Source: Candidatus Dojkabacteria bacterium
Lineage (GTDB): Bacteria > Patescibacteriota > Dojkabacteria > SC72 > JAHDCA01
Direction: 5' to 3'
Assembly: GCA_020630115.1 (NCBI GenBank)
Contig: JAHDCA010000002.1
Coordinates: forward strand, 1-25,903
DNA: 25,903 nt
Positions 2,297-12,740 of this stretch are shown here, piece by piece. The translations under genes and the position numbers were made by a program. Numbering within the stretch: position 1 is the first letter of the stretch; each line of letters opens with the position of its first letter. The notes below the pieces were generated by a model that saw nothing but the letters and a program-made list of their open reading frames with translations, ran no database searches and was not told where the DNA came from.

Positions 2297-5200
2297 TTAG
2301 AACTCCCACTTAATAACTTTCGTAAGATCTGTCTTAAGATCTAATGTTCCCTCAAGCTTATTACCATTAACTGTTAATTCCTGATTATCAGTTATACTCC
2401 AAAATTCTGGATGTGTAATTGTTAGATTCAATTTATCCTCATTAGTACCAGGTTGTTTAAACATTCTTAAATCTAACTCGCCGAAATTATCATTTGAACT
2501 AAACGGTAAGTAACTAGATTGATTATCTAATTTGTATTGAATGTCTAATTGATTTCCTTGACCAGCAGGAACATTGAACCAACCTGCAATCTCTAATCGA
2601 TCAGTCAATTTATTAGTTGAATACCTCCCTTCTTCAAAACCTGTTACAGTTTGGATCTGAGCATTCAAAGGTAGATACAGCCTTAAATAATTAACGTAAT
2701 CACCCTCTGGGTAAGTATTTGAAACCGAATTATTTTTGAGATCTAACCTGTAAGAGTAATTTATCTCTTGAGGCCCTACGATATCTAAGTTCAATGTATG
2801 GACACGATCTAAGAAGAAGTTGGCTTTGTTTGCCCCCCAGTTCCATTCGACGATTGCTGGAGTAGCTAAGGATTTCTTCGAGATGTTACCGTCCCAACCT
2901 TTACTAATTATGAACTCTTGGGCTTGAGAATTTTTCAGATTTAGGAGTATATGCTTCTGATCTAAACTTTGCGACATCACTTCGCTTAAGTCTTGAAGGT
3001 CATTAATATTCAATGAGAAAAACCTATTCATAACTACTTGAACTAACTCTTTAGTAAAATCTGATTTCAATGATGACCCTGGAGTAAACTCGTTATGGAT
3101 CTCAAATATCTTAGTATAGATATTATCTTGATCTATCAACTCTCCATTTACCTCTACCCCACCCCATTTGTTAAGCAACAATTGTAAGAATGTCACGTCA
3201 ACAGCTATCACACCATCTACAGAACCTACCTTACCTGACTCAACAAGTAACTTTTCGGCGTCTAAGGCTACGTCACTAAACTCAGGATCCCAATTAGCCA
3301 AAGAGAATGTCCAATTGTTGATCGCTAAGGCATCACCCATATCTGCTGGTGGAACTTGCGTCTCTCCATTATTATTGGAAGGTAAGAGCAAGCCATCAAT
3401 ATTGTATACATCTCCAACTTCGATTCCACCTCTGACTCTTCCTCTTTCTATTGAGATTATTCCGTAACTTGATAACCATCCTCCTGAACTTCTTAATTCT
3501 GTTGGATTCTGAAAAAGCACTAAATATCTCTGCCTTTCTTCTAAGCCTAATAACTGTGGCAAGTAAATTAGCATCTTTGATATAGGATCGACTTGTTCAA
3601 TTGTATTGGAGTTGAAATTCTTCATATCAACAATATATTTTTGAACAAAACCAGGGAAGGCTTCAGTGTCAGTACTTTCAATTATTGCTGAACCTTCATT
3701 TATATCTCGAAGAGCTAGAAGTATCTCCCCACTTGTACTATCAAGTTCTTGTAGTTCTTGAGTATATTCTCTAGTTTGCGTTGTTTGAACTCCTAAACCT
3801 GCTACATCGAAGGCCTTAACATACTCCTGCAATGGACTCACCCAGTCTAACATCTGATTACCACCTCCAGCGATCTGCTCTGCTGCGTATACAAGATTAT
3901 TAAGTTCAAAATGTAAATCTTCTTGTCCAGTAATATTAGCAAGCCAGCCAAGTTGTGAGACACTCCAATTTATATTTGAAAGATGATTCTCAGATCTGCT
4001 TATCTGAGTTGTTGCATCGTCAAATTCAAGATTTGCAATAGAAGTTTGTGCGTTCTTTAGATTGAAGTAAACTACTGTACCTGAAACTAATCCAACAAGC
4101 ATCGGTGCTATTAAAAAGTAAAAGATCACACCAAGTAGAATTGCAATTGCACTTACCCTGAGAATACTCAAGGATCTTACAAAACCTGTTAGTCTGGAAC
4201 TAGTGTTACTAAACCAACCAAAGATCTTTCCAAAAGGACTTGATATCGCATAAACTATTTCACCAAACTTCGTTCTAACTATAATCGGTTTAGCCTGAGA
4301 AAGCGGAACCTGCTTATCACTAAGGTCTTTCTGTCTTTTTCGATATTTCTCTAACTCTTGATCAAAATCATAATGCTCTGACTGGTTAAATTTCCAAGCC
4401 TTATTATTCTCTTTATACAAAAAAGACATAAGATTTCCGAGCATTAACTCTAACGGAACCTTCTGAGACCACCCATACTCAGTAGCATTAGGAGCAGGGA
4501 CATATTGAGAATAAAGTACTTCATGTTTATCACCTTCCTCAAATTTTATGTTCCTAGCATCAATATCAAGTTCAAGTAACTTATATGCTATAGAAAGAGA
4601 TGTGTAATCATGATTATTCGCTAAAGTAATAACCTCACCTGCAACCTTACGATCAAATGTTAATTTCACAAGTCCATAGACTGCGTCTTCAACATCAATA
4701 ACATAATGAGTTTTAAGACCTTCCCCACGAATATTTATTGAATTACCTTTAACTGAGGACTTCAAGATATCCAGAAGCTCATCATCTTGCAATGGTAAGA
4801 ATCCTTCACCTAAAACTTCTCCTATCCTTACAATCCTAGCATTCAAGTTGTTTTTATCATGATATTCAGCAGTAACCGTTTCAACATACTTTTGAAGTTC
4901 ATGCTTACTATAACCTTCCGGCTTTATATAAGATGTACTCGATAGTAATTGAGAGTATTTCTGATGTAGATATACTGTTGAGACCAATGAGAATTTTGCA
5001 TCGTACTTAACAGCCGCATTTAAGACTTCGCTCAACCTATTTGACTCAGTCAAAAATTCTTTGCTATCCAGACTATCCCTGGAGGATATATAGTTGTTAA
5101 ATAAGTAAAAGACATAATCAATCCTCTTTATGTTATCAAAGAGCCCTTGACTACCTTCTTGATCAACAAAGTCTACATCCTTCAGCGACTTTAATTTCTT

Positions 5201-5383
5201 TACATATGGCTTTGTAAATTTATCGAAAGTATCAAGAACAATAACCTTATTACCTTGATCAGAGAGAGTCTTAGCTAATTCGTAACCAATCTGGTTTGCA
5301 CCATGATAAAGTAATGATATAAGGGTCTGAGTTTTAATCTTTTCAAATGTTTTTTGCGTTGTTGTTTTTTTAGCCATGCTCAA
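2297..5383 (-). CDS. Fusion of a degenerate NAD-dependent epimerase/dehydratase-like domain, a TM segment and an extracytoplasmic DUF4012 domain
   Basis: The N-terminal ~320 aa follow the extended-SDR layout (KVIVLDTF, FSLVSTVY, NARIVRIGEVLGEG, YVIDVEDAVYGLVK). A TM segment lies near aa 410-440. The C-terminus has DUF4012-type motifs YLVLFQNPTELRSSGG, NWDPEF, DGVIAVD, WNWGANKANF and YVNYLRLYLP. Confidence 0.85.
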   Translation of the reverse strand: MSMAKKTTTQKTFEKIKTQTLISLLYHGANQIGYELAKTLSDQGNKVIVLDTFDKFTKPYVKKLKSLKDVDFVDQEGSQGLFDNIKRIDYVFYLFNNYISSRDSLDSKEFLTESNRLSEVLNAAVKYDAKFSLVSTVYLHQKYSQLLSSTSYIKPEGYSKHELQKYVETVTAEYHDKNNLNARIVRIGEVLGEGFLPLQDDELLDILKSSVKGNSINIRGEGLKTHYVIDVEDAVYGLVKLTFDRKVAGEVITLANNHDYTSLSIAYKLLELDIDARNIKFEEGDKHEVLYSQYVPAPNATEYGWSQKVPLELMLGNLMSFLYKENNKAWKFNQSEHYDFDQELEKYRKRQKDLSDKQVPLSQAKPIIVRTKFGEIVYAISSPFGKIFGWFSNTSSRLTGFVRSLSILRVSAIAILLGVIFYFLIAPMLVGLVSGTVVYFNLKNAQTSIANLEFDDATTQISRSENHLSNINWSVSQLGWLANITGQEDLHFELNNLVYAAEQIAGGGNQMLDWVSPLQEYVKAFDVAGLGVQTTQTREYTQELQELDSTSGEILLALRDINEGSAIIESTDTEAFPGFVQKYIVDMKNFNSNTIEQVDPISKMLIYLPQLLGLEERQRYLVLFQNPTELRSSGGWLSSYGIISIERGRVRGGIEVGDVYNIDGLLLPSNNNGETQVPPADMGDALAINNWTFSLANWDPEFSDVALDAEKLLVESGKVGSVDGVIAVDVTFLQLLLNKWGGVEVNGELIDQDNIYTKIFEIHNEFTPGSSLKSDFTKELVQVVMNRFFSLNINDLQDLSEVMSQSLDQKHILLNLKNSQAQEFIISKGWDGNISKKSLATPAIVEWNWGANKANFFLDRVHTLNLDIVGPQEINYSYRLDLKNNSVSNTYPEGDYVNYLRLYLPLNAQIQTVTGFEEGRYSTNKLTDRLEIAGWFNVPAGQGNQLDIQYKLDNQSSYLPFSSNDNFGELDLRMFKQPGTNEDKLNLTITHPEFWSITDNQELTVNGNKLEGTLDLKTDLTKVIKWEF

Positions 5384-6022
5384 TTATAAGTTTATAGGAA
5401 TTGGTAATAGATTGCTTTCAATTTCAGTATTGTAACCCTCATTAATGGTTAGCTCAATTTCCAAGTCATCATACCCTGAGGCTTCAAATCGGATTTTATA
5501 AAGAGCAGGTAATAATTCATATCGTACCATTGGAGTCGACCCTACCTCTCTACCATCGATGAACACTTTTGTAGTCTCAGGCTTAGTATTAATTGTTAGA
5601 TAACCTACTCCATCTCTAGCGACTTTATTCTTTGATGTTGTAGCGGCGTACCCGATAAAACTATCATTAGGTACGATCTCGGCAACCACAGTCCCAGTAG
5701 TACCTTCTTCAATATCTAAAGTAAAGAACTGAGGTTGATAAGCCCCAACGATTTCACTCTCTCTAGCAATTTCTACTTTGTATATCCCAGGAGATAAATC
5801 TTGAATCTGAACAGGGGTTGAACCGTGATCTTGATTATTAACCTTAACTGAAAGCTCAGGTGTATTAGGCATTGAAAGCACCTCGATTTGTGAGTTATTA
5901 GTAAACTCTTTGAAGTACGGTAGTTGATCTCTAAATGAATTGAAAGGTACAAAGATTAGAAATATCGAAATGCCAAAAAGGATTAAAAATACAATGAGTG
6001 AGATCCTTATGTACTTATTCAT
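5384..6022 (-). CDS. Membrane-anchored PEGA-domain protein (two PEGA-like repeats)
   Basis: N-terminal TM followed by SVKVNNQDHGSTPVQIQDLSPGIYKVEI and YLTINTKPETTKVFIDGREVGSTPM...ALYKIRFEASGY. Its stop abuts the next ATG. Confidence 0.85.
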   Translation of the reverse strand: MNKYIRISLIVFLILFGISIFLIFVPFNSFRDQLPYFKEFTNNSQIEVLSMPNTPELSVKVNNQDHGSTPVQIQDLSPGIYKVEIARESEIVGAYQPQFFTLDIEEGTTGTVVAEIVPNDSFIGYAATTSKNKVARDGVGYLTINTKPETTKVFIDGREVGSTPMVRYELLPALYKIRFEASGYDDLEIELTINEGYNTEIESNLLPIPINL

Positions 6023-6027
6023 ATTAT

Positions 6028-6035
6028 ATTATACT
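6028..6035. promoter_or_regulatory. Overlapping divergent -10 elements (ATTATACT)
   Basis: Minus-strand TATAAT (6033-6028) lies 5 nt before ATG 6022. Plus-strand TATACT (6030-6035) lies upstream of ung. Confidence 0.5.
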
Positions 6036-6059
6036 CAAAAGTATTATTTTAAAAAGCTT

Positions 6060-6716
6060 ATGCAAACGTTTATGACTTGGGACAAATTATTAAAGCATTT
6101 CAAAGCAAAACCTGAGTATAAGATGCTAATTAAAAATGTCGAAAAAGAATATAATAGTTCGAACTGTTTCCCTGAATTCACAAATATTTTTAAAGCACTA
6201 GAGCTTACTACTCCTGACAACCTCAAAGTAATTATAATCGGTCAAGACCCTTACCACAAAGCTGGTCAAGCTATGGGTTTGAGCTTCTCAATCCCTAACG
6301 GTAATAAAATGCAACCATCCCTTAGAAATATATTCAAAGAATTAAAAGATGACATTGATATTGTTAGACATCAAACTGATCTTTCAGATTGGGCAAAGCA
6401 AGGAGTCCTATTACTAAATACTTCACTTACTGTAAGAGAGAATGAACCAAACACGCACAAAGATATAGGATGGGAAATTTATACTTCAGAGGTCATTAAA
6501 CGAATCTCATCATACAAGAGGAATATCGTTTTCATACTTTGGGGAAATCACGCACAAGAATACGAAAAATATATCCAAGATGCCAACAATCATTTCGTAA
6601 TAAAATCAAGCCACCCCTCTCCTTTCTCAGCTCATAAATCATTTCTAGGAAGCAAACCCTTTAGTAAAACCAATTCTTTCTTAATTTCGAAAAATATTAA
6701 AACTATCAACTGGTAA
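6060..6716 (+). CDS. ung: Uracil-DNA glycosylase, family 1
   Basis: Motifs GQDPYH, GLSFS, PSLRNIFKEL, QGVLLLNTSLTV, VFILWGNHAQ and HPSPFS. Start is ATG 6060 or 6072; the track start at 5940 overlaps the divergent gene. Confidence 0.95.
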   Translation: MQTFMTWDKLLKHFKAKPEYKMLIKNVEKEYNSSNCFPEFTNIFKALELTTPDNLKVIIIGQDPYHKAGQAMGLSFSIPNGNKMQPSLRNIFKELKDDIDIVRHQTDLSDWAKQGVLLLNTSLTVRENEPNTHKDIGWEIYTSEVIKRISSYKRNIVFILWGNHAQEYEKYIQDANNHFVIKSSHPSPFSAHKSFLGSKPFSKTNSFLISKNIKTINW

Positions 6717-6723
6717 CCTGAGA

Positions 6724-6966
6724 TTAACCACCGAAGAAAACGCTACCTCCAGAACAACCACAACATAGTGTAAACACCAAAGTAACGCCGATGGCCATTA
6801 TCAAGAAACTCCTATCTCTCTGAGATAAATCAAAGTTAAAGAAGTTGTTAGTATTAAAAGATGATGCTTGAGCACTCCTAGTTTGAGAATTTGGTTTAGC
6901 CTTGGAAGATGACTTCTTAGTAGCTTTAAAGCTGTCAACTTTTTTAGCTTTCTTTACTGTTGCCAT
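6724..6966 (-). CDS. Small Lys/Ser-rich protein with a C-terminal TM ending in CCGC
   Basis: 80 aa with a basic low-complexity N-terminus and hydrophobic FLIMAIGVTLVFTL followed by CCGCSGG. Overlaps the 3' end of the methyltransferase gene by 23 nt. Confidence 0.6.
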   Translation of the reverse strand: MATVKKAKKVDSFKATKKSSSKAKPNSQTRSAQASSFNTNNFFNFDLSQRDRSFLIMAIGVTLVFTLCCGCSGGSVFFGG

Positions 6967-7654
6967 TTGTTTTTTGCAAGATTAAATAGTAATTAAGTTT
7001 ACCAGATTTCCCATCTGATCTAAAACTTTCAATTTTATATCCTTTAGCTCTAAGTATCTCTTCGACCTCCAGTATCTCTTCATCACTGAAGAAGTGACAG
7101 AACCTTTCGGATTCAACACCTCTTTTCCAAGTATTAATATAATCATCACCTGAAAACTTTCCACTGGTTTCCAGGGTTTTCCCCAACTTTGATCGACCTG
7201 TCCACATCGTAACCACAACATACCCACCTTCTACACATAGTTTTCCACACTCATCAATAAAATCTACCCTCTGCTGAAAGTCCGGAATATGATGGATAAC
7301 CCCAAAGGCAACAACGGTGTCAAATTTCTCGATTGGCCACTTGTCATTAAACATATCCCAACTTTCAAAAACATACCTTTCATCGAAAAACTCCTTAGCT
7401 TGATTGATCCACTTAGTAGCGAAATCCAAACCAAGAAACCTACTTGGTTTAGTGCCATTCTTAAGCAGGTAATTAAGAAACCTCCCATTACCACAACCAA
7501 TATCAACTACTGTCTTCCCAACTACTTCCATCCTCATAAGCGCAGCCCAACCATCCCAGGAAGCATCTATAGAAAGATGCGAACTATTATTGACTTCAAA
7601 GATTTTATTATAGAAATTTTTATTAATTTCATTAAATTCGTCGTTTTCTAGCAT
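6944..7654 (-). CDS. Class I SAM-dependent methyltransferase, Trm9/ALKBH8-like
   Basis: Motif I (VVDIGCGNGRFL), motif II (LGLDFA), FDTVVAFGVIHHIP, GGYVVVTMW and C-terminal RFCHFF...NYYLILQK. Methyltransferase function is confident; the Trm9 subfamily assignment is an inference. Confidence 0.9.
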   Translation of the reverse strand: MLENDEFNEINKNFYNKIFEVNNSSHLSIDASWDGWAALMRMEVVGKTVVDIGCGNGRFLNYLLKNGTKPSRFLGLDFATKWINQAKEFFDERYVFESWDMFNDKWPIEKFDTVVAFGVIHHIPDFQQRVDFIDECGKLCVEGGYVVVTMWTGRSKLGKTLETSGKFSGDDYINTWKRGVESERFCHFFSDEEILEVEEILRAKGYKIESFRSDGKSGKLNYYLILQKTNGNSKES

Positions 7655-7659
7655 AGTGT

Positions 7660-7667
7660 ATTATAAT
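7660..7667. promoter_or_regulatory. Palindromic bidirectional -10 element ATTATAAT
   Basis: Gives TATAAT on both strands, each exactly 5 nt before a start codon (ATG 7654 minus, GTG 7673 plus). Confidence 0.7.
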
Positions 7668-7672
7668 CCAAT

Positions 7673-9445
7673 GTGAGAAAAGAATGGAATAAAAACAAAT
7701 TTGATCCAACAGGCTATCTTTACGAGATCGGAAACATCCTAAAACTCATCGAAAAGTCTGAAAAATGGAACGCTGATATCTTAAGAAAAGCCCTGAAACA
7801 ATTCCCCAAAGATGGGAAGGAACTATTCTCTAAAGATCAGTTACTTGCAGGATACAAAGAGCTTATCGCGCAAGGCAAGACAGTTGAGAAAGCTATCCTC
7901 AACACTAGACTTAAAATGAAGCCAATGAGAACACACTCAGGTGTTGCTACAGTTACAGTCCTTACCAAACCTTACCCATGCCCCGGCAAATGCATTTTCT
8001 GCCCTAATGACGTAAAGATGCCAAAGAGTTACCTTTCTGATGAACCAGGTGCTCAAAGAGCAGAGCGTAATAACTTTGATCCGTATCTCCAAACTTACAA
8101 TAGGCTTTTGGCTTTGGAAACAATCGGACACAAGGTAAGCAAAGTCGAATTAATTATTCTTGGTGGAACCTGGTCTTTCTACCCTACGCAATATCAAATC
8201 TGGTTTGTTAAAGAATGCTTCAGAGCAATGAATGATTTCGGTAATAAAGACGGGCGGGATACTGTCGAAACTCAGAATATATTTGAAGAAGCAGACAAGA
8301 TCCCTGCTCATTCTAAGGAAGGAAAACTAAAGACTTACAACGATCTGGTCACACATGTTGTTAATGAACAAGGGAGTGAATTTTTTAGCCCAAATGAACT
8401 TTCGGATTGGGAAGAATTATACCAGCAGCATAAAATTAATGAGGTAGCTAAAACAAGATGTGTCGGTCTAGTAATCGAAACAAGACCAGATTATATTGAT
8501 CCTGATGAAGTTATAAAGATTCGAAAGCTTGGAGCAACTAAGGTACAAATCGGTATTCAAAGTTTAAACGATAAGGTTCAAGCTATGAATATGAGGGGAC
8601 ATGGTAGAAGAGAAGCTGGTCAAGCATGTAGCTTACTTAGACAGGCTGGCTTTAAAGTTCATGCACACTGGATGCCAAATCTGTACGGATCGAATCCAGA
8701 GTTAGATATAGCTGATTATGATCAGCTATGGGAAGAAGATGTTAGACCAGACGAGCTCAAGATTTACCCATGTTCGATTATTAAAAATACTAGACTATTT
8801 GAGCTCTACAATGAAGGTAAGTACAAACCTTATACTTATGATGAGTTGCTTAAAGTACTCACAGAGGTTATGCCTCACACTCCACGTTACTGCAGACTAA
8901 CTAGAGTTGTAAGAGATATTCCTTCTACAGATATCGTCGCAGGCAACAAACTTACTAACTTTAGACAAATCGCTGAGAGCGAATTAGATAAAAATGGTGT
9001 ACGTTGTGAATGCATAAGATGTAGAGAGATAAAACTTCAAACAATCACTCATCAAGATATAGAAGTTGAGGAAATTGAATATTCGACTAAAACTTCACAA
9101 GAAGTTTTCATTTCTTTCAAAACTAAAACTGACGATAAGATTTGTGGTTTTTTAAGGCTCTCACTTCCAAACGAAAAATCATTCATTGAAGAGCTCTCAG
9201 ACAACGCTATTATCCGTGAAGTACATGTTTATGGAAAGCTAGTGGGGATCGATAAGGAAAACACGTCAAACTCAAGCCAACATCTTGGGCTCGGTAAACA
9301 AATGATTGCAAGATCCCAGCAGATCGCATCATCCAAAGGCTACTCGAAGATATCAGTAATCTCTGCTATTGGTACTAGAGAATATTACGAGAAACTAGGA
9401 TTCGAGATGAATAGTGACCAACTTTACATGCATAAAGATGCCTAA
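7673..9445 (+). CDS. elp3: Elp3 tRNA uridine(34) acetyltransferase (radical SAM plus GNAT/KAT domain)
   Basis: Motifs KPMRTHSGVATVTVLTKPYPCPGKCIFCP (CxxxCxxC), PKSYLSDEPG, LIILGGTW, GLVIETRPDY, DELKIYPCSII, RLTRVVRDIP, CECIRCRE, IIREVHVYG, QHLGLGKQM and VISAIGTREYYEKLGF. Confidence 0.94.
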   Translation: MRKEWNKNKFDPTGYLYEIGNILKLIEKSEKWNADILRKALKQFPKDGKELFSKDQLLAGYKELIAQGKTVEKAILNTRLKMKPMRTHSGVATVTVLTKPYPCPGKCIFCPNDVKMPKSYLSDEPGAQRAERNNFDPYLQTYNRLLALETIGHKVSKVELIILGGTWSFYPTQYQIWFVKECFRAMNDFGNKDGRDTVETQNIFEEADKIPAHSKEGKLKTYNDLVTHVVNEQGSEFFSPNELSDWEELYQQHKINEVAKTRCVGLVIETRPDYIDPDEVIKIRKLGATKVQIGIQSLNDKVQAMNMRGHGRREAGQACSLLRQAGFKVHAHWMPNLYGSNPELDIADYDQLWEEDVRPDELKIYPCSIIKNTRLFELYNEGKYKPYTYDELLKVLTEVMPHTPRYCRLTRVVRDIPSTDIVAGNKLTNFRQIAESELDKNGVRCECIRCREIKLQTITHQDIEVEEIEYSTKTSQEVFISFKTKTDDKICGFLRLSLPNEKSFIEELSDNAIIREVHVYGKLVGIDKENTSNSSQHLGLGKQMIARSQQIASSKGYSKISVISAIGTREYYEKLGFEMNSDQLYMHKDA

Positions 9446-9490: not shown

Positions 9491-10882
9491 TTAATCCTCT
9501 TCTTCTATCTCGACAAGTGTTTTAGCATTTAGCTTTTGAATATCAGGTAGTGAACCGCTGTAAACAATTATACCTGCTAACATGAAAATCAAACCTACAA
9601 CTGGCAATAAAAGATTAGAACTACCCAAGATTGAAGCCTTTGGAAGTATTGAATTTGTATAGCCATCGCCGGCAGCGCTAGATCCTGCCCCTCCAGTACC
9701 TGTACCTGCATCTGAGCCAGAGCTACTGGCTGTATCCCCAGAATCAGTAGATCCTGATGATGATGAGCTACTCCCACTATCAGAGCCGTCAACAGTTGCA
9801 ATATCTCCAGACTCTCTAGAGATGTAACTTGCGTAACAGCTATCACCCGTGATCTTTGCACAATCTGTGTAATTAATAGCACCACCCGAGAATATAACAC
9901 CATCTAAAGAGTAACTTGGGTGTGACCAACAGTAATCAGTATTTGTCGAATCATAATACCTTGTTGTTGCAATGAATCCATTATCAGTTACAAGACTACC
10001 ATTTGTTGTATTGTCTAGAAGAAGAGTAGATATACTTGAATACTGCATTGAGTAAAGGTACATCCAGGTCAACCCACTAGAGCCTAAACTCGTTGAAGAA
10101 CCGCAGTACCAATTTGAATTATCAAGGTAAAAAACGCTTGGTTGATTAGCAGGAGCAAAACAAACCTCAGCATTTCCAGGTTGCCCACTTAGTACCCCAC
10201 CATCCATAAGACTTGTATTAATTGTTACATAATCATCGTCATTATCTAATTTGACATTAGTACCACCATCGTAACCATTTGCTGTAAAACCTTCGCAAGA
10301 TAATTGGTTTGCTAATTTAACAGTAATGTTAGAACAACCCTCATTACAAGTTGAGTTTGTTAATGCAGTTGTTTGCAATGCACCTGCACCACCATTATAC
10401 CCAGGGCTTGTTGTACACCATTGAGTAGTTGCATTTGCATAGTAATGTACCCTAGTATAAAAGATCAAGCCATTAGTATATGGATCACCAGACAGCCCAG
10501 TTGTATATGTTGTTGGCAGTCCTGCAACATAGTCCTCGAAAGTTTGTGTTGCAGTATAACCAAATTTTGCTGTTGATGTATATGCACAAGATTCTATAAC
10601 CGACCTCTGCTGGTAATAAGAAGCTGATTGCCCTGCGACAGCCCAACATATCTCTAATTGTTCAGGATCATATGCAGCAGCAGTTGATGTGTTATCGTCA
10701 CCTTGCAATGAGAATGAGAGTGTTTCATCACTAGATACAGAGAGACTTAGACCTGACTGCCCCTTACTTGTCGTTACACCAAAGGCTTGGCAAACAGGAG
10801 CGGCATTAACATCTGAACTCGATATTGAAATCAAGATTAATAAAAATGCAAAAGTAAACAAACTAAAGAGTATTTTTTTCAT
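9491..10882 (-). CDS. Secreted/surface protein with two copies of a 6-Cys domain, a Ser/Gly linker, an LPKAS motif and a C-terminal TM
   Basis: Signal peptide ending VNA-A, internal duplication at aa 31-195 and 196-~355, linker SDSGSSSSSSGSTDSG, then LPKAS and a hydrophobic helix. Confidence 0.85.
   Translation of the reverse strand: MKKILFSLFTFAFLLILISISSSDVNAAPVCQAFGVTTSKGQSGLSLSVSSDETLSFSLQGDDNTSTAAAYDPEQLEICWAVAGQSASYYQQRSVIESCAYTSTAKFGYTATQTFEDYVAGLPTTYTTGLSGDPYTNGLIFYTRVHYYANATTQWCTTSPGYNGGAGALQTTALTNSTCNEGCSNITVKLANQLSCEGFTANGYDGGTNVKLDNDDDYVTINTSLMDGGVLSGQPGNAEVCFAPANQPSVFYLDNSNWYCGSSTSLGSSGLTWMYLYSMQYSSISTLLLDNTTNGSLVTDNGFIATTRYYDSTNTDYCWSHPSYSLDGVIFSGGAINYTDCAKITGDSCYASYISRESGDIATVDGSDSGSSSSSSGSTDSGDTASSSGSDAGTGTGGAGSSAAGDGYTNSILPKASILGSSNLLLPVVGLIFMLAGIIVYSGSLPDIQKLNAKTLVEIEEED
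9818..10792 (-). repeat. Protein-level tandem duplication of a ~165-aa six-cysteine domain
   Basis: Cys at 31/79/99/156/179/183 versus 196/241/260/318/341/349. Matching segments: EICWAVAGQ vs EVCFAPANQ, NGLIFYTR vs NGFIATTR, WCTTSPGY vs YCWSHPSY. Confidence 0.7.
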
Positions 10883-10919: not shown

Positions 10920-12740
10920 TTAATCCCTAAATACTGTAATTGATTTCCAGACCCCAAACATTCCTCGACCACCACTTCCAGCCGTAAATAGTAAGGAAAG
11001 TGCGATTATCGTTAGGAACATACTTATAGTACCTAGAGTTTTTGAGACTTCATCTAGAACCCCGGATTGAGGCAAGACTTCAAATTCTGCATCTACTTTG
11101 TCGCAAGTTAGTCTATTACAGTACGAATTACATTGATCACCTTCACACTCGAAATCAATACCTAAACACTCTCGGCTTTTACAGTATCCTGCATCACAAA
11201 ATCCATCACTGCACTGACTATCTTCACTGCATTGTTCTCCACATAATAATAGCTCTTGCGTATCTTCAAGTATTGTCTTTATAAAGCAGGTATCAACTTC
11301 ACAGTACTGACAACTCTCACTACCTGAGGATATATCACACGTGTGCTTTGGTACAGCCATACATGTGTTTGTATTGCATGTATTTGTTTCAAGATCACAA
11401 CTATATCCAGAACTACAATCACTGTCGACTGAGCAACTAGAGCTACAAGTTCCAGCAGCTACACCCTGCTTAGTTACCTCTTTGCAAGTACCGATCTGAC
11501 AATAGTCACATGTCTCTCCAGGACCGGCATCACATGAGTGAGAATTCGAATTACCTAAATCACATGTTTCACCAGACTCTAAAACACCATTTCCACAAAC
11601 AGGTTCTGAACTTGGATCAGGTGCAGGATTAGTAACAACTCTCGTAGTCGTTTCAGATTCCTCAGTGACTACCACCTCACTGCTACCAGAACACTTACAT
11701 ACACCACCTTGACCGACAACATCTACTTGATGACATCTAAAGCCACCTTTTCCAGGGCTTGTTGAATGAGTACTACTCGAACTAGAGTATGAGCTAATAA
11801 CTGTATCTGAAGTTGGGCAACTATCCCCACCATACTCTACTATGTTATAAGTCCCATCTGCATTAGTCTGTTGACCGCCATCTGGACAAGAGACAATTTC
11901 AAAGCTATCAGAACCGTAGGTAATATTGCAACGAGATTTTGAAGTGCTATCTCCCTGACTACCATCAGTTATTCGATCTGTCCATTCACTTGTATCTAAT
12001 GAAGTATTTTCATAACTTGCAGCTTGCTCCGGACTTAGAGCCCAAGGTTGATCAGAATAAGGGTTGTGGGATGGATTGGTACAACTTCCTGAAGCGAACC
12101 ATCCATATACTGTTTCAATCGTACCATCTGAGTTAGTAATAGTCCCTACTGCATTGCAAGAATACTCGCAGCCATCGGCATTATTCGTATGTTTTTGACC
12201 AGCATAATTCCCATTATGGCATTGATCTCCACCTGCAGGCGATGTAGGTGCAACATATTCTGTTTCGCCTTTATTTAAACTATCCCCTTCTTGAAAATCT
12301 TCACTTATATAGTCACCAGGATTTTGAGTTATTGTATCTGTAAAACCATCACCATCGGCATCATCATTTTCTAGATCAATATCCTCTAGAACTTTTTGAG
12401 TATCGAAACCTTCTGGTAGTCCCCCACCAAGCTGATTTCCATCTTCGTCCGTACCTCCAGATATTGCTCCTGCTTCAATTGCTTTCCCTCTCTCCTCCTC
12501 ATCTTCAGGAACGCTTACTGAATTAGCATTACTTGCCCCACAATCAACAGGGGTTTCAACCCATCGATCCTCTTCTGCAAACCACCAGGTTGTAACACAT
12601 GCTTGAGCATCTGAAGTTGATACTTGTTCATCTGGTTGAATTACTCTATATACAACAAAACCTATTAATAAAATTGCAAAAATTGAAACTGTGCCAAATA
12701 CGATTTTCCCACGTGTTGTTAAGCGGACAATTCTTTCCAT
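10920..12740 (-). CDS. Cys-rich surface protein with an N-terminal anchor, Myxococcus-type Cys-rich repeat (DUF4215-like), LPQSG motif and C-terminal TM
   Basis: TM IVFGTVSIFAILLIGFVVY, acidic DDADGDGFTD, CGNGVLESGETCDLG, CSSSCSVDSDCSSGYSC and CGEQCSEDSQCSDGFC, then LPQSG and a hydrophobic helix. Confidence 0.85.
   Translation of the reverse strand: MERIVRLTTRGKIVFGTVSIFAILLIGFVVYRVIQPDEQVSTSDAQACVTTWWFAEEDRWVETPVDCGASNANSVSVPEDEEERGKAIEAGAISGGTDEDGNQLGGGLPEGFDTQKVLEDIDLENDDADGDGFTDTITQNPGDYISEDFQEGDSLNKGETEYVAPTSPAGGDQCHNGNYAGQKHTNNADGCEYSCNAVGTITNSDGTIETVYGWFASGSCTNPSHNPYSDQPWALSPEQAASYENTSLDTSEWTDRITDGSQGDSTSKSRCNITYGSDSFEIVSCPDGGQQTNADGTYNIVEYGGDSCPTSDTVISSYSSSSSTHSTSPGKGGFRCHQVDVVGQGGVCKCSGSSEVVVTEESETTTRVVTNPAPDPSSEPVCGNGVLESGETCDLGNSNSHSCDAGPGETCDYCQIGTCKEVTKQGVAAGTCSSSCSVDSDCSSGYSCDLETNTCNTNTCMAVPKHTCDISSGSESCQYCEVDTCFIKTILEDTQELLLCGEQCSEDSQCSDGFCDAGYCKSRECLGIDFECEGDQCNSYCNRLTCDKVDAEFEVLPQSGVLDEVSKTLGTISMFLTIIALSLLFTAGSGGRGMFGVWKSITVFRD

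Follow-up and report, generated by a model that had tools for sequence, protein, structure and literature searches.

In eukaryotes, Trm9 has Trm112 as its obligate partner, and the textbook routes to wobble-uridine modification in bacteria are those of MnmE/MnmG and CmoA/CmoB. To our knowledge, documentation of 5-methoxycarbonylmethyluridine (mcm5U) is confined to eukaryotes, to which a single archaeon was added in 2018. Previous studies of archaea showed that the Elp3 and Trm9 genes are clustered in Sulfolobus, and that HvoTrm9 (HVO_1032) of Haloferax volcanii makes mcm5U with Trm112, which is needed in vivo (PMC6144793). Bacterial Elp3 has been described as rare or sporadic (PMC6367351) and also as present in "numerous bacteria" (PMC13315578). 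Here, we analyzed a pair of divergent genes in a 25,903-nucleotide stretch of DNA from a Candidatus Dojkabacteria bacterium (contig JAHDCA010000002.1, referred to as the window; source genome of 906 kb in 104 contigs, 73% complete), which encode an Elp3 and a Trm9-like class I methyltransferase that depends on S-adenosylmethionine (SAM) and which are likely to form a bacterial pathway to mcm5U. An earlier note on this stretch had described a complete Elp3 and a class I methyltransferase lying head to head with their starts 18 bp apart, and the open reading frames (ORFs) and their 18-bp spacer are as it described them. It had also remarked that mcm5U was apparently undescribed in bacteria; likewise, the literature that we searched names no bacterial Trm9 partner of Elp3, reports no bacterial mcm5U and does not describe the pair.

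The Haloferax Trm9-Trm112 enzyme and the Sulfolobus cluster, compared here by description, resemble the bacterial pair in combining a stand-alone prokaryotic Elp3 with a Trm9-type enzyme, and Sulfolobus has the same clustering of the two genes; however, no counterpart of the Trm112 on which the archaeal Trm9 depends was detected with the bacterial pair. The Elp3 proteins of Dehalococcoides mccartyi (5L7J) and Methanocaldococcus infernus (6IAZ) are likewise single subunits with radical-SAM and lysine acetyltransferase (KAT) domains. The literature names no methyltransferase downstream of them, whereas the Elp3 considered here was found in 149 of the 401 genomes sampled from one phylum and mostly has a partner gene. 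The MnmE/MnmG (with MnmC) and CmoA/CmoB/CmoM pathways also modify U34, presumably of the same set of tRNAs, with MnmA thiolation in common, and CmoM methyl-esterifies a carboxyl group on the U34 side chain, but their enzymes are unrelated and their chemistry is different; MnmE and MnmG were not found in this genome, and the NCBIfam matches of the methyltransferase included no CmoM family.

By its family, domain and PDB matches, the plus-strand protein of the pair is Elp3. It matched TIGR01211 with 507.7 bits (cut-off 350) over model positions 37-520 of 522, and Pfam assigned it Radical_SAM, Radical_SAM_C and GNAT domains, the GNAT matches spanning residues 472-582. Its top PDB matches were archaeal MinElp3 (6iaz, E 4e-104) and then bacterial DmcElp3 (5l7j, E 8e-92), and eukaryotic Elp3 structures matched with E 5e-86 to 1e-80. 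The radical-SAM cysteine motif and the acetyl-CoA motif of the GNAT domain are both intact, and a further cysteine cluster, CECIRC, would be the zinc site (Table 1). By analogy with DmcElp3 and MinElp3 (PMC6367351), the Elp3 of this genome is expected to make 5-carboxymethyluridine at the wobble position (cm5U34). The Elp3 variants of one family in our collection (f16) and of the locus L002:1794-3971 are 640-725 aa in length; in these, the match to the family model stops at position ~420-457 and a weak GNAT match lies solely at the very C-terminal end, as if a large insertion were present within the KAT domain or ahead of it.

For the methyltransferase, Pfam returned the generic Methyltransf_23/12/25/11 models and nothing more specific, and NCBIfam returned generic class I models with weak likeness to UbiG, UbiE, CmoB and BioC; since all of these matches were generic or far below cut-off, no curated family settles its identity. 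A CmoM- or CmoB-type identity was rejected, as CmoB scored ~29 bits against cut-offs of >200 and the NCBIfam matches with E up to 0.01 included none to a CmoM family. Searching PDB with the single sequence ranked Trm9 of Yarrowia lipolytica (5CM2, 5cm2_Z) third, and of the three alignments printed it was the sole one to reach beyond the Rossmann core, to residue 196. With family profiles as queries, 5cm2_Z ranked first: an 18-sequence profile gave it 82.9 bits (E 2e-22) and the runner-up 60.9, and a 42-sequence profile drawn from several phyla gave 66.2 and 56.5 bits, respectively. An AlphaFold2 (AF2) model of the protein had a mean predicted local distance difference test (pLDDT) score of 86.8, and Foldseek placed 5cm2_Z second among its PDB matches (template modeling (TM) scores of 0.76/0.61, root mean square deviation of 4.4 Å, 22% identity), behind an uncharacterized methyltransferase. 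The TM-score normalized to the target (0.76) was the best obtained, without a clear gap to the others. This result fits Trm9 but does not discriminate, because >1,000 class I methyltransferases match about equally well with similar E-values. Thus, on whether the protein sides with Trm9 or with other class I methyltransferases, a matter raised by the earlier note, the profiles favor Trm9 and the structural search does not decide. The motifs that the note had lined up with yeast Trm9 reappear in the computed alignment with 5cm2_Z (window/Yarrowia: DIGCGNGRF/DIGCGNGKY, FGVIHHIP/IAVIHHFS, VVTMW/LIYVW, INTW/MVPW and RFCHFF/RYYHLY).

Functional residues extend the likeness beyond the SAM fold. Létoquart et al. 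showed that R29, D72, H116, W145, W168, R241, Y243 and N271 of yeast Trm9 are required for activity and located Y18 and H115 at the cm5U site; in their experiments D72A abolished SAM binding, H116A was inactive and R29A left ~5% of the activity (PMC4678810). Six of the eight activity residues are kept in the window methyltransferase (D51, H122, W151, W176, R184 and N221), and they are nearly invariant across 104 relatives from Patescibacteria, Chloroflexota and other phyla. The equivalent of D72 (D51) is present in 102 of these, that of W145 (W151) in all 104, that of W168 (W176) in 99, with Phe in the other 5, and those of R241 (R184) and N271 (N221) in 103 each. The counterpart of Y18 (Y15) is found in 104/104, as are C54 and N56 of SAM-binding motif I. 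These results support the proposal that the protein carries active-site features of Trm9 beyond the generic methyltransferase motifs, and they show the family to be Trm9-like in sequence, its substrate-binding residues included. The two remaining activity residues differ. The position of Y243 is Cys in the window protein and in 79/104 relatives, and that of R29, which is Arg in 95/104 relatives, is His (H26) in the window protein alone. As had been noted, the FSxTR motif of Trm9 is not conserved here: relatives have F-x-x-(T/S)-R, and the window protein has NNSSH followed by a 3-residue insert. The window methyltransferase also has a long branch in the family tree, and the Arg-to-His change may have reduced or altered its activity.

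A separate subclade of the family (loci L027, L034, L036, L038, L041, L044, L085 and L104, mostly from family f16) also lacks the Arg, and its genomes have Elp3 on a separate contig or showed none. In several f16 genomes the methyltransferase is present twice, and the subclade could be a paralogue that serves another role. Membership of the window protein in it was rejected, since the two do not group in the family tree.

Set against Trm9-Trm112 of Saccharomyces cerevisiae and Yarrowia and the methyltransferase domain of animal ALKBH8, the bacterial family thus shares the class I SAM fold, the D-I/V-G-C-G-N-G motif and a tie to Elp3, and, with Trm9, the best PDB match of its profiles and the equivalents of Y18, D72, H115/H116, W145, W168, R241 and N271. 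It differs in having no detected Trm112, in the Cys at Y243 and, for the window copy, in the His and insert at R29; the bacterial protein is also ~240 aa, without the yeast-type insertion or the AlkB and RRM domains, and its gene stands head to head with that of Elp3.

The two genes are conserved both in their linkage and in their co-occurrence. In 401 evenly sampled genomes of the phylum (methyltransferase E <= 1e-25, Elp3 E <= 1e-60), both genes were found in 110, the methyltransferase without Elp3 in 12, Elp3 without the methyltransferase in 39 and neither in 240, giving totals of 122 and 149 genomes for the methyltransferase and Elp3, respectively. Of the 110 genomes that have both genes, 95 carry them on one contig, <=4 kb apart and divergent in every case; in the remainder, they were on different contigs (13) or far apart (2). 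Although kin among the sampled genomes are not independent, the pairs stem from dozens of families, and an arrangement that recurs so often, always divergent, is not due to chance. The co-occurrence and synteny with elp3 that the earlier note had proposed to test are therefore present, with Elp3 in 110 of the 122 methyltransferase-positive genomes. A single family, with completeness of 68-85%, accounts for nine of the 12 genomes with the methyltransferase alone, and family f4, which is in the same order as the window, for 18 of the 39 with Elp3 alone. Among the 41 genomes nearest to the window, Elp3 was found in 33 and a strong methyltransferase match (>200 bits) in 5, in all of which the gene is divergently beside Elp3 or <=2 kb away.

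The family reaches well beyond the phylum. Across 80 named GTDB loci, it was found in Chloroflexota (Anaerolineae, Phototrophicaceae, Aggregatilineales), Dojkabacteria, WWE3, Paceibacterota, Saccharibacteria, Beckwithbacteria, Thermoanaerobaculia and one metagenome-assembled genome (MAG) of Deltaproteobacteria. About half of these loci have Elp3 <=4 kb from the methyltransferase, always divergent, including loci of Anaerolineae, Thermoanaerobaculia and the Deltaproteobacteria MAG; in Phototrophicaceae genomes with unlinked genes, Elp3 was present elsewhere in 5/5. The family profile retrieved 2,309 candidate protein clusters (50% identity) at E <= 1e-30, and the named matches listed in such searches (the best 120-150) were bacterial. 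NCBI names members "class I SAM-dependent methyltransferase" or "methyltransferase domain-containing protein", and automatic annotation at JGI labels some of them TRM9.

Family f4 has Elp3 in 21/21 genomes searched among the nearest relatives, all of them without the methyltransferase. The idea that an alternative partner stands beside Elp3 in f4 (loci L126-L131) was rejected, as the divergent neighbor there is Ndk (nucleoside diphosphate kinase), followed by uracil-DNA glycosylase, and no methyltransferase is present. The methyltransferase of the window also adjoins a uracil-DNA glycosylase gene, and thus the methyltransferase and the f4 Ndk fill the same slot.

The other genes of wobble-uridine modification were also surveyed. 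In this genome, MnmG and Trm112 (PF03966) were not found and MnmE was not found beyond a 23-bit partial match, at 73% completeness, in agreement with the absence of mnmE, mnmG and trm112 that the earlier note had put forward for checking. None of five pair-carrying genomes that are 95-100% complete had a Trm112 match above cut-off either; the PF03966 model is short, so that a divergent Trm112 could have been missed. MnmG occurs in 11 of the 401 genomes of the phylum, and Elp3 in none of those 11. Since 240 of the sampled genomes lack the pair altogether and MnmG is found in just these 11, more than half of the genomes sampled from this candidate phyla radiation (CPR) show neither of the enzymes for 5-substituted methyluridines at U34 (xm5U34) that were searched for (Elp3, MnmG). 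MnmA is present in this genome (393 bits, contig C17), and its tRNAs include Glu-UUC, Lys-UUU, Arg-UCU, Gly-UCC and Leu-UAA. PF01171 (TilS/TtuA-type PP-loop ATPase) had no match in this genome, which may reflect an assembly gap given its incompleteness.

Altogether, these results make it likely that the pair is a bacterial two-gene module for modifying the wobble uridine in the archaeal/eukaryotic manner, leading from Elp3 through cm5U34 to mcm5U34, or to the 2-thiolated form (mcm5s2U) with MnmA, and doing so without Trm112. Elp3 alone, with SAM-derived radical chemistry and acetyl-CoA, would carboxymethylate C5 of U34, as the Dehalococcoides and archaeal enzymes do. The Trm9-like enzyme, which appears to act without Trm112, would then move the methyl group of SAM onto the carboxylate of cm5U to give mcm5U34, and the bacterial-type MnmA would add the 2-thio group on Lys/Glu/Gln tRNAs. 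Such a module would stand in for MnmE/MnmG, neither of which was found in this genome. The substrate and product of the methyltransferase and its independence of Trm112 are what we infer from the comparison, and mcm5U is probably made in bacteria that carry the pair. The two-gene module proposed in the earlier note is therefore supported by similarity, linkage and co-distribution, but it is not peculiar to the window, Elp3 often stands alone (39/149), and the window copy lacks the conserved Arg.

Several observations weigh against the proposed pathway. The Pfam and NCBIfam matches of the methyltransferase are generic, the lead of Trm9 over the next PDB match falls to 10 bits with the broader profile, and Foldseek, with Trm9 at rank 2, fails to set it apart from other class I enzymes. 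Elp3 is without the methyltransferase in 39 genomes, and one family holds a methyltransferase subclade without linkage to Elp3. In place of Y243 of Trm9, a residue important in yeast, the methyltransferase family has Cys, and the window copy, on its long branch, has His26 and the insert in place of an Arg whose loss leaves the yeast enzyme nearly inactive. Part of this evidence would suit a methyltransferase whose substrate has no relation to tRNA U34 (be it a small molecule, a protein or a different RNA) and which lies beside Elp3 through shared regulation or inherited gene order: the curated models matched are generic class I ones, with weak likeness to UbiG, UbiE, CmoB and BioC, the top Foldseek match is uncharacterized, 12 genomes have the methyltransferase without detected Elp3, and 15 have both genes unlinked. 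We consider this explanation very unlikely, because linkage and co-occurrence hold across several phyla and Trm9-specific residues beyond the SAM fold are invariant; furthermore, 9 of those 12 genomes are incomplete members of one family, and a CmoM-type family is missing from the NCBIfam matches.

Two other explanations keep the tie to Elp3 and differ over the chemistry. The methyltransferase might act on Elp3-modified tRNA and yield something other than plain mcm5U, either from another xm5U intermediate or through specificity altered by the Cys at Y243 and, in the window copy, the His at R29, both positions being important in yeast. Linkage ties the enzyme to Elp3 and leaves its product undefined, and the Elp3-dependent intermediates of Haloferax are not simply cm5U (PMC6144793). 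However, the equivalents of H115/H116, W145, R241 and N271, for which a role in holding the carboxylate and the uridine ring has been proposed, are all kept, and we regard such a product as unlikely. Alternatively, the window copy itself might be weakened or neo-functionalized by the loss of the Arg and the 3-residue insert, so that the module stops at cm5U or at 5-carbamoylmethyluridine (ncm5U), as in relatives that have Elp3 only. His26 is unique among the 104 relatives, the branch is long, R29A is crippling in yeast, and the sister family f4 retains Elp3 without such a methyltransferase. Nevertheless, the ORF is intact, every other key residue is kept, the AF2 model is confident, the tight head-to-head layout is preserved, and a His could still hydrogen-bond the carboxylate, which leaves this explanation only a slim chance. 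The Elp3-to-mcm5U pathway thus remains the reading that we prefer.

Table 1. Positions of the gene pair, its sequence motifs and the adjoining gene in the window.
Feature	Positions	Strand	Remarks
Uracil-DNA glycosylase	5940..6716		Adjoins methyltransferase
Trm9-like class I SAM-dependent methyltransferase	6944..7654	-	236 aa, ATG start; from ORF list
H121-H122 (yeast Trm9 H115/H116)	7289..7294	-	Each in 104/104 relatives
SAM-binding motif I, D51-I-G-C-G-N-G57	7484..7504	-	Aligns with DIGCGNG of Yarrowia Trm9
H26, at the conserved Arg position of the family (yeast R29)	7577..7579	-	Followed by 3-residue insert
Divergent spacer, 18 bp, AGTGTATTATAATCCAAT	7655..7672	.	Between start codons of methyltransferase and Elp3
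Elp3, predicted radical-SAM/GNAT tRNA U34 carboxymethyl (cm5U) synthase	7673..9445	+	590 aa, GTG start; TIGR01211, Pfam and PDB matches
Radical-SAM cysteine motif CPGKCIFC, residues 103-110	7979..8002	+	Intact in Elp3
Cys cluster CECIRC, residues 445-450	9005..9022	+	In Elp3
GNAT acetyl-CoA motif QHLGLG, residues 536-541	9278..9295	+	Intact in Elp3

The short spacer between the two genes bears on their expression. No earlier Elp3 start is possible, because an in-frame TAA lies within the spacer, and for both proteins the alignments with homologues begin at residues 5-10, so that both starts are about right. TATAAT is present on both strands of the spacer, 5 nt from each start codon (TATTATAAT), and the spacer contains no Shine-Dalgarno sequence. 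Among 26 related loci with spacers of 10-150 bp (drawn from L016-L124), a perfect TATAAT was found 5-11 nt upstream of the Elp3 start in 11 and upstream of the methyltransferase start in 7, compared with 0.5% at random positions. The presence of TATAAT near both starts, together with the missing Shine-Dalgarno sequence, suggests that the Elp3 and methyltransferase mRNAs are leaderless and arise from one shared bidirectional promoter.

The genes flanking the pair in the window are housekeeping genes by their Pfam matches (an RpoD-type sigma factor, the uracil-DNA glycosylase and a thioredoxin-reductase-like protein) and show no sign of a mobile island. An 80-aa ORF on the minus strand (6724-6966) shares 23 nt with the 3' end of the methyltransferase gene; its product is rich in Lys/Ser at the N-terminus and hydrophobic, with Cys, at the C-terminus, and has no Pfam match. 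Two large minus-strand ORFs, 9491-10882 (463 aa) and 10920-12740 (606 aa), are also without Pfam matches; a hydrophobic stretch near each terminus and long regions rich in Ser/Thr/Gly or in Cys give them the look of cell-surface proteins. On the other side, a 1028-aa minus-strand protein (2297-5383) has an NAD-dependent epimerase/dehydratase domain at its N-terminus and also contains DUF4012, and a PEGA-domain protein (5384-6022) comes next.

What the locus would represent is a bacterial, Trm112-less form of the known Elp3-Trm9 pathway, which should be moderately surprising to a specialist. On sequence grounds, we lean slightly towards the view that much of Patescibacteria (about a quarter of the sampled genomes), together with lineages of Chloroflexota and other phyla, make mcm5U/mcm5s2U by a hybrid pathway consisting of an Elp3 of archaeal/eukaryotic type, a Trm112-independent relative of Trm9 encoded head to head with it, and the MnmA of bacteria. 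If this is true, mcm5U would be a modification common to the three domains, and the bacterial family would be the first Trm9-type enzyme to work without Trm112. A widely conserved pair of this kind would imply that, in an entire radiation of bacteria, split codon boxes are decoded by means of an archaeal/eukaryote-type modification. The pair would also offer a single-subunit, Trm112-free system for Trm9 chemistry, and it bears on the evolution of the Elongator pathway or its transfer between domains.

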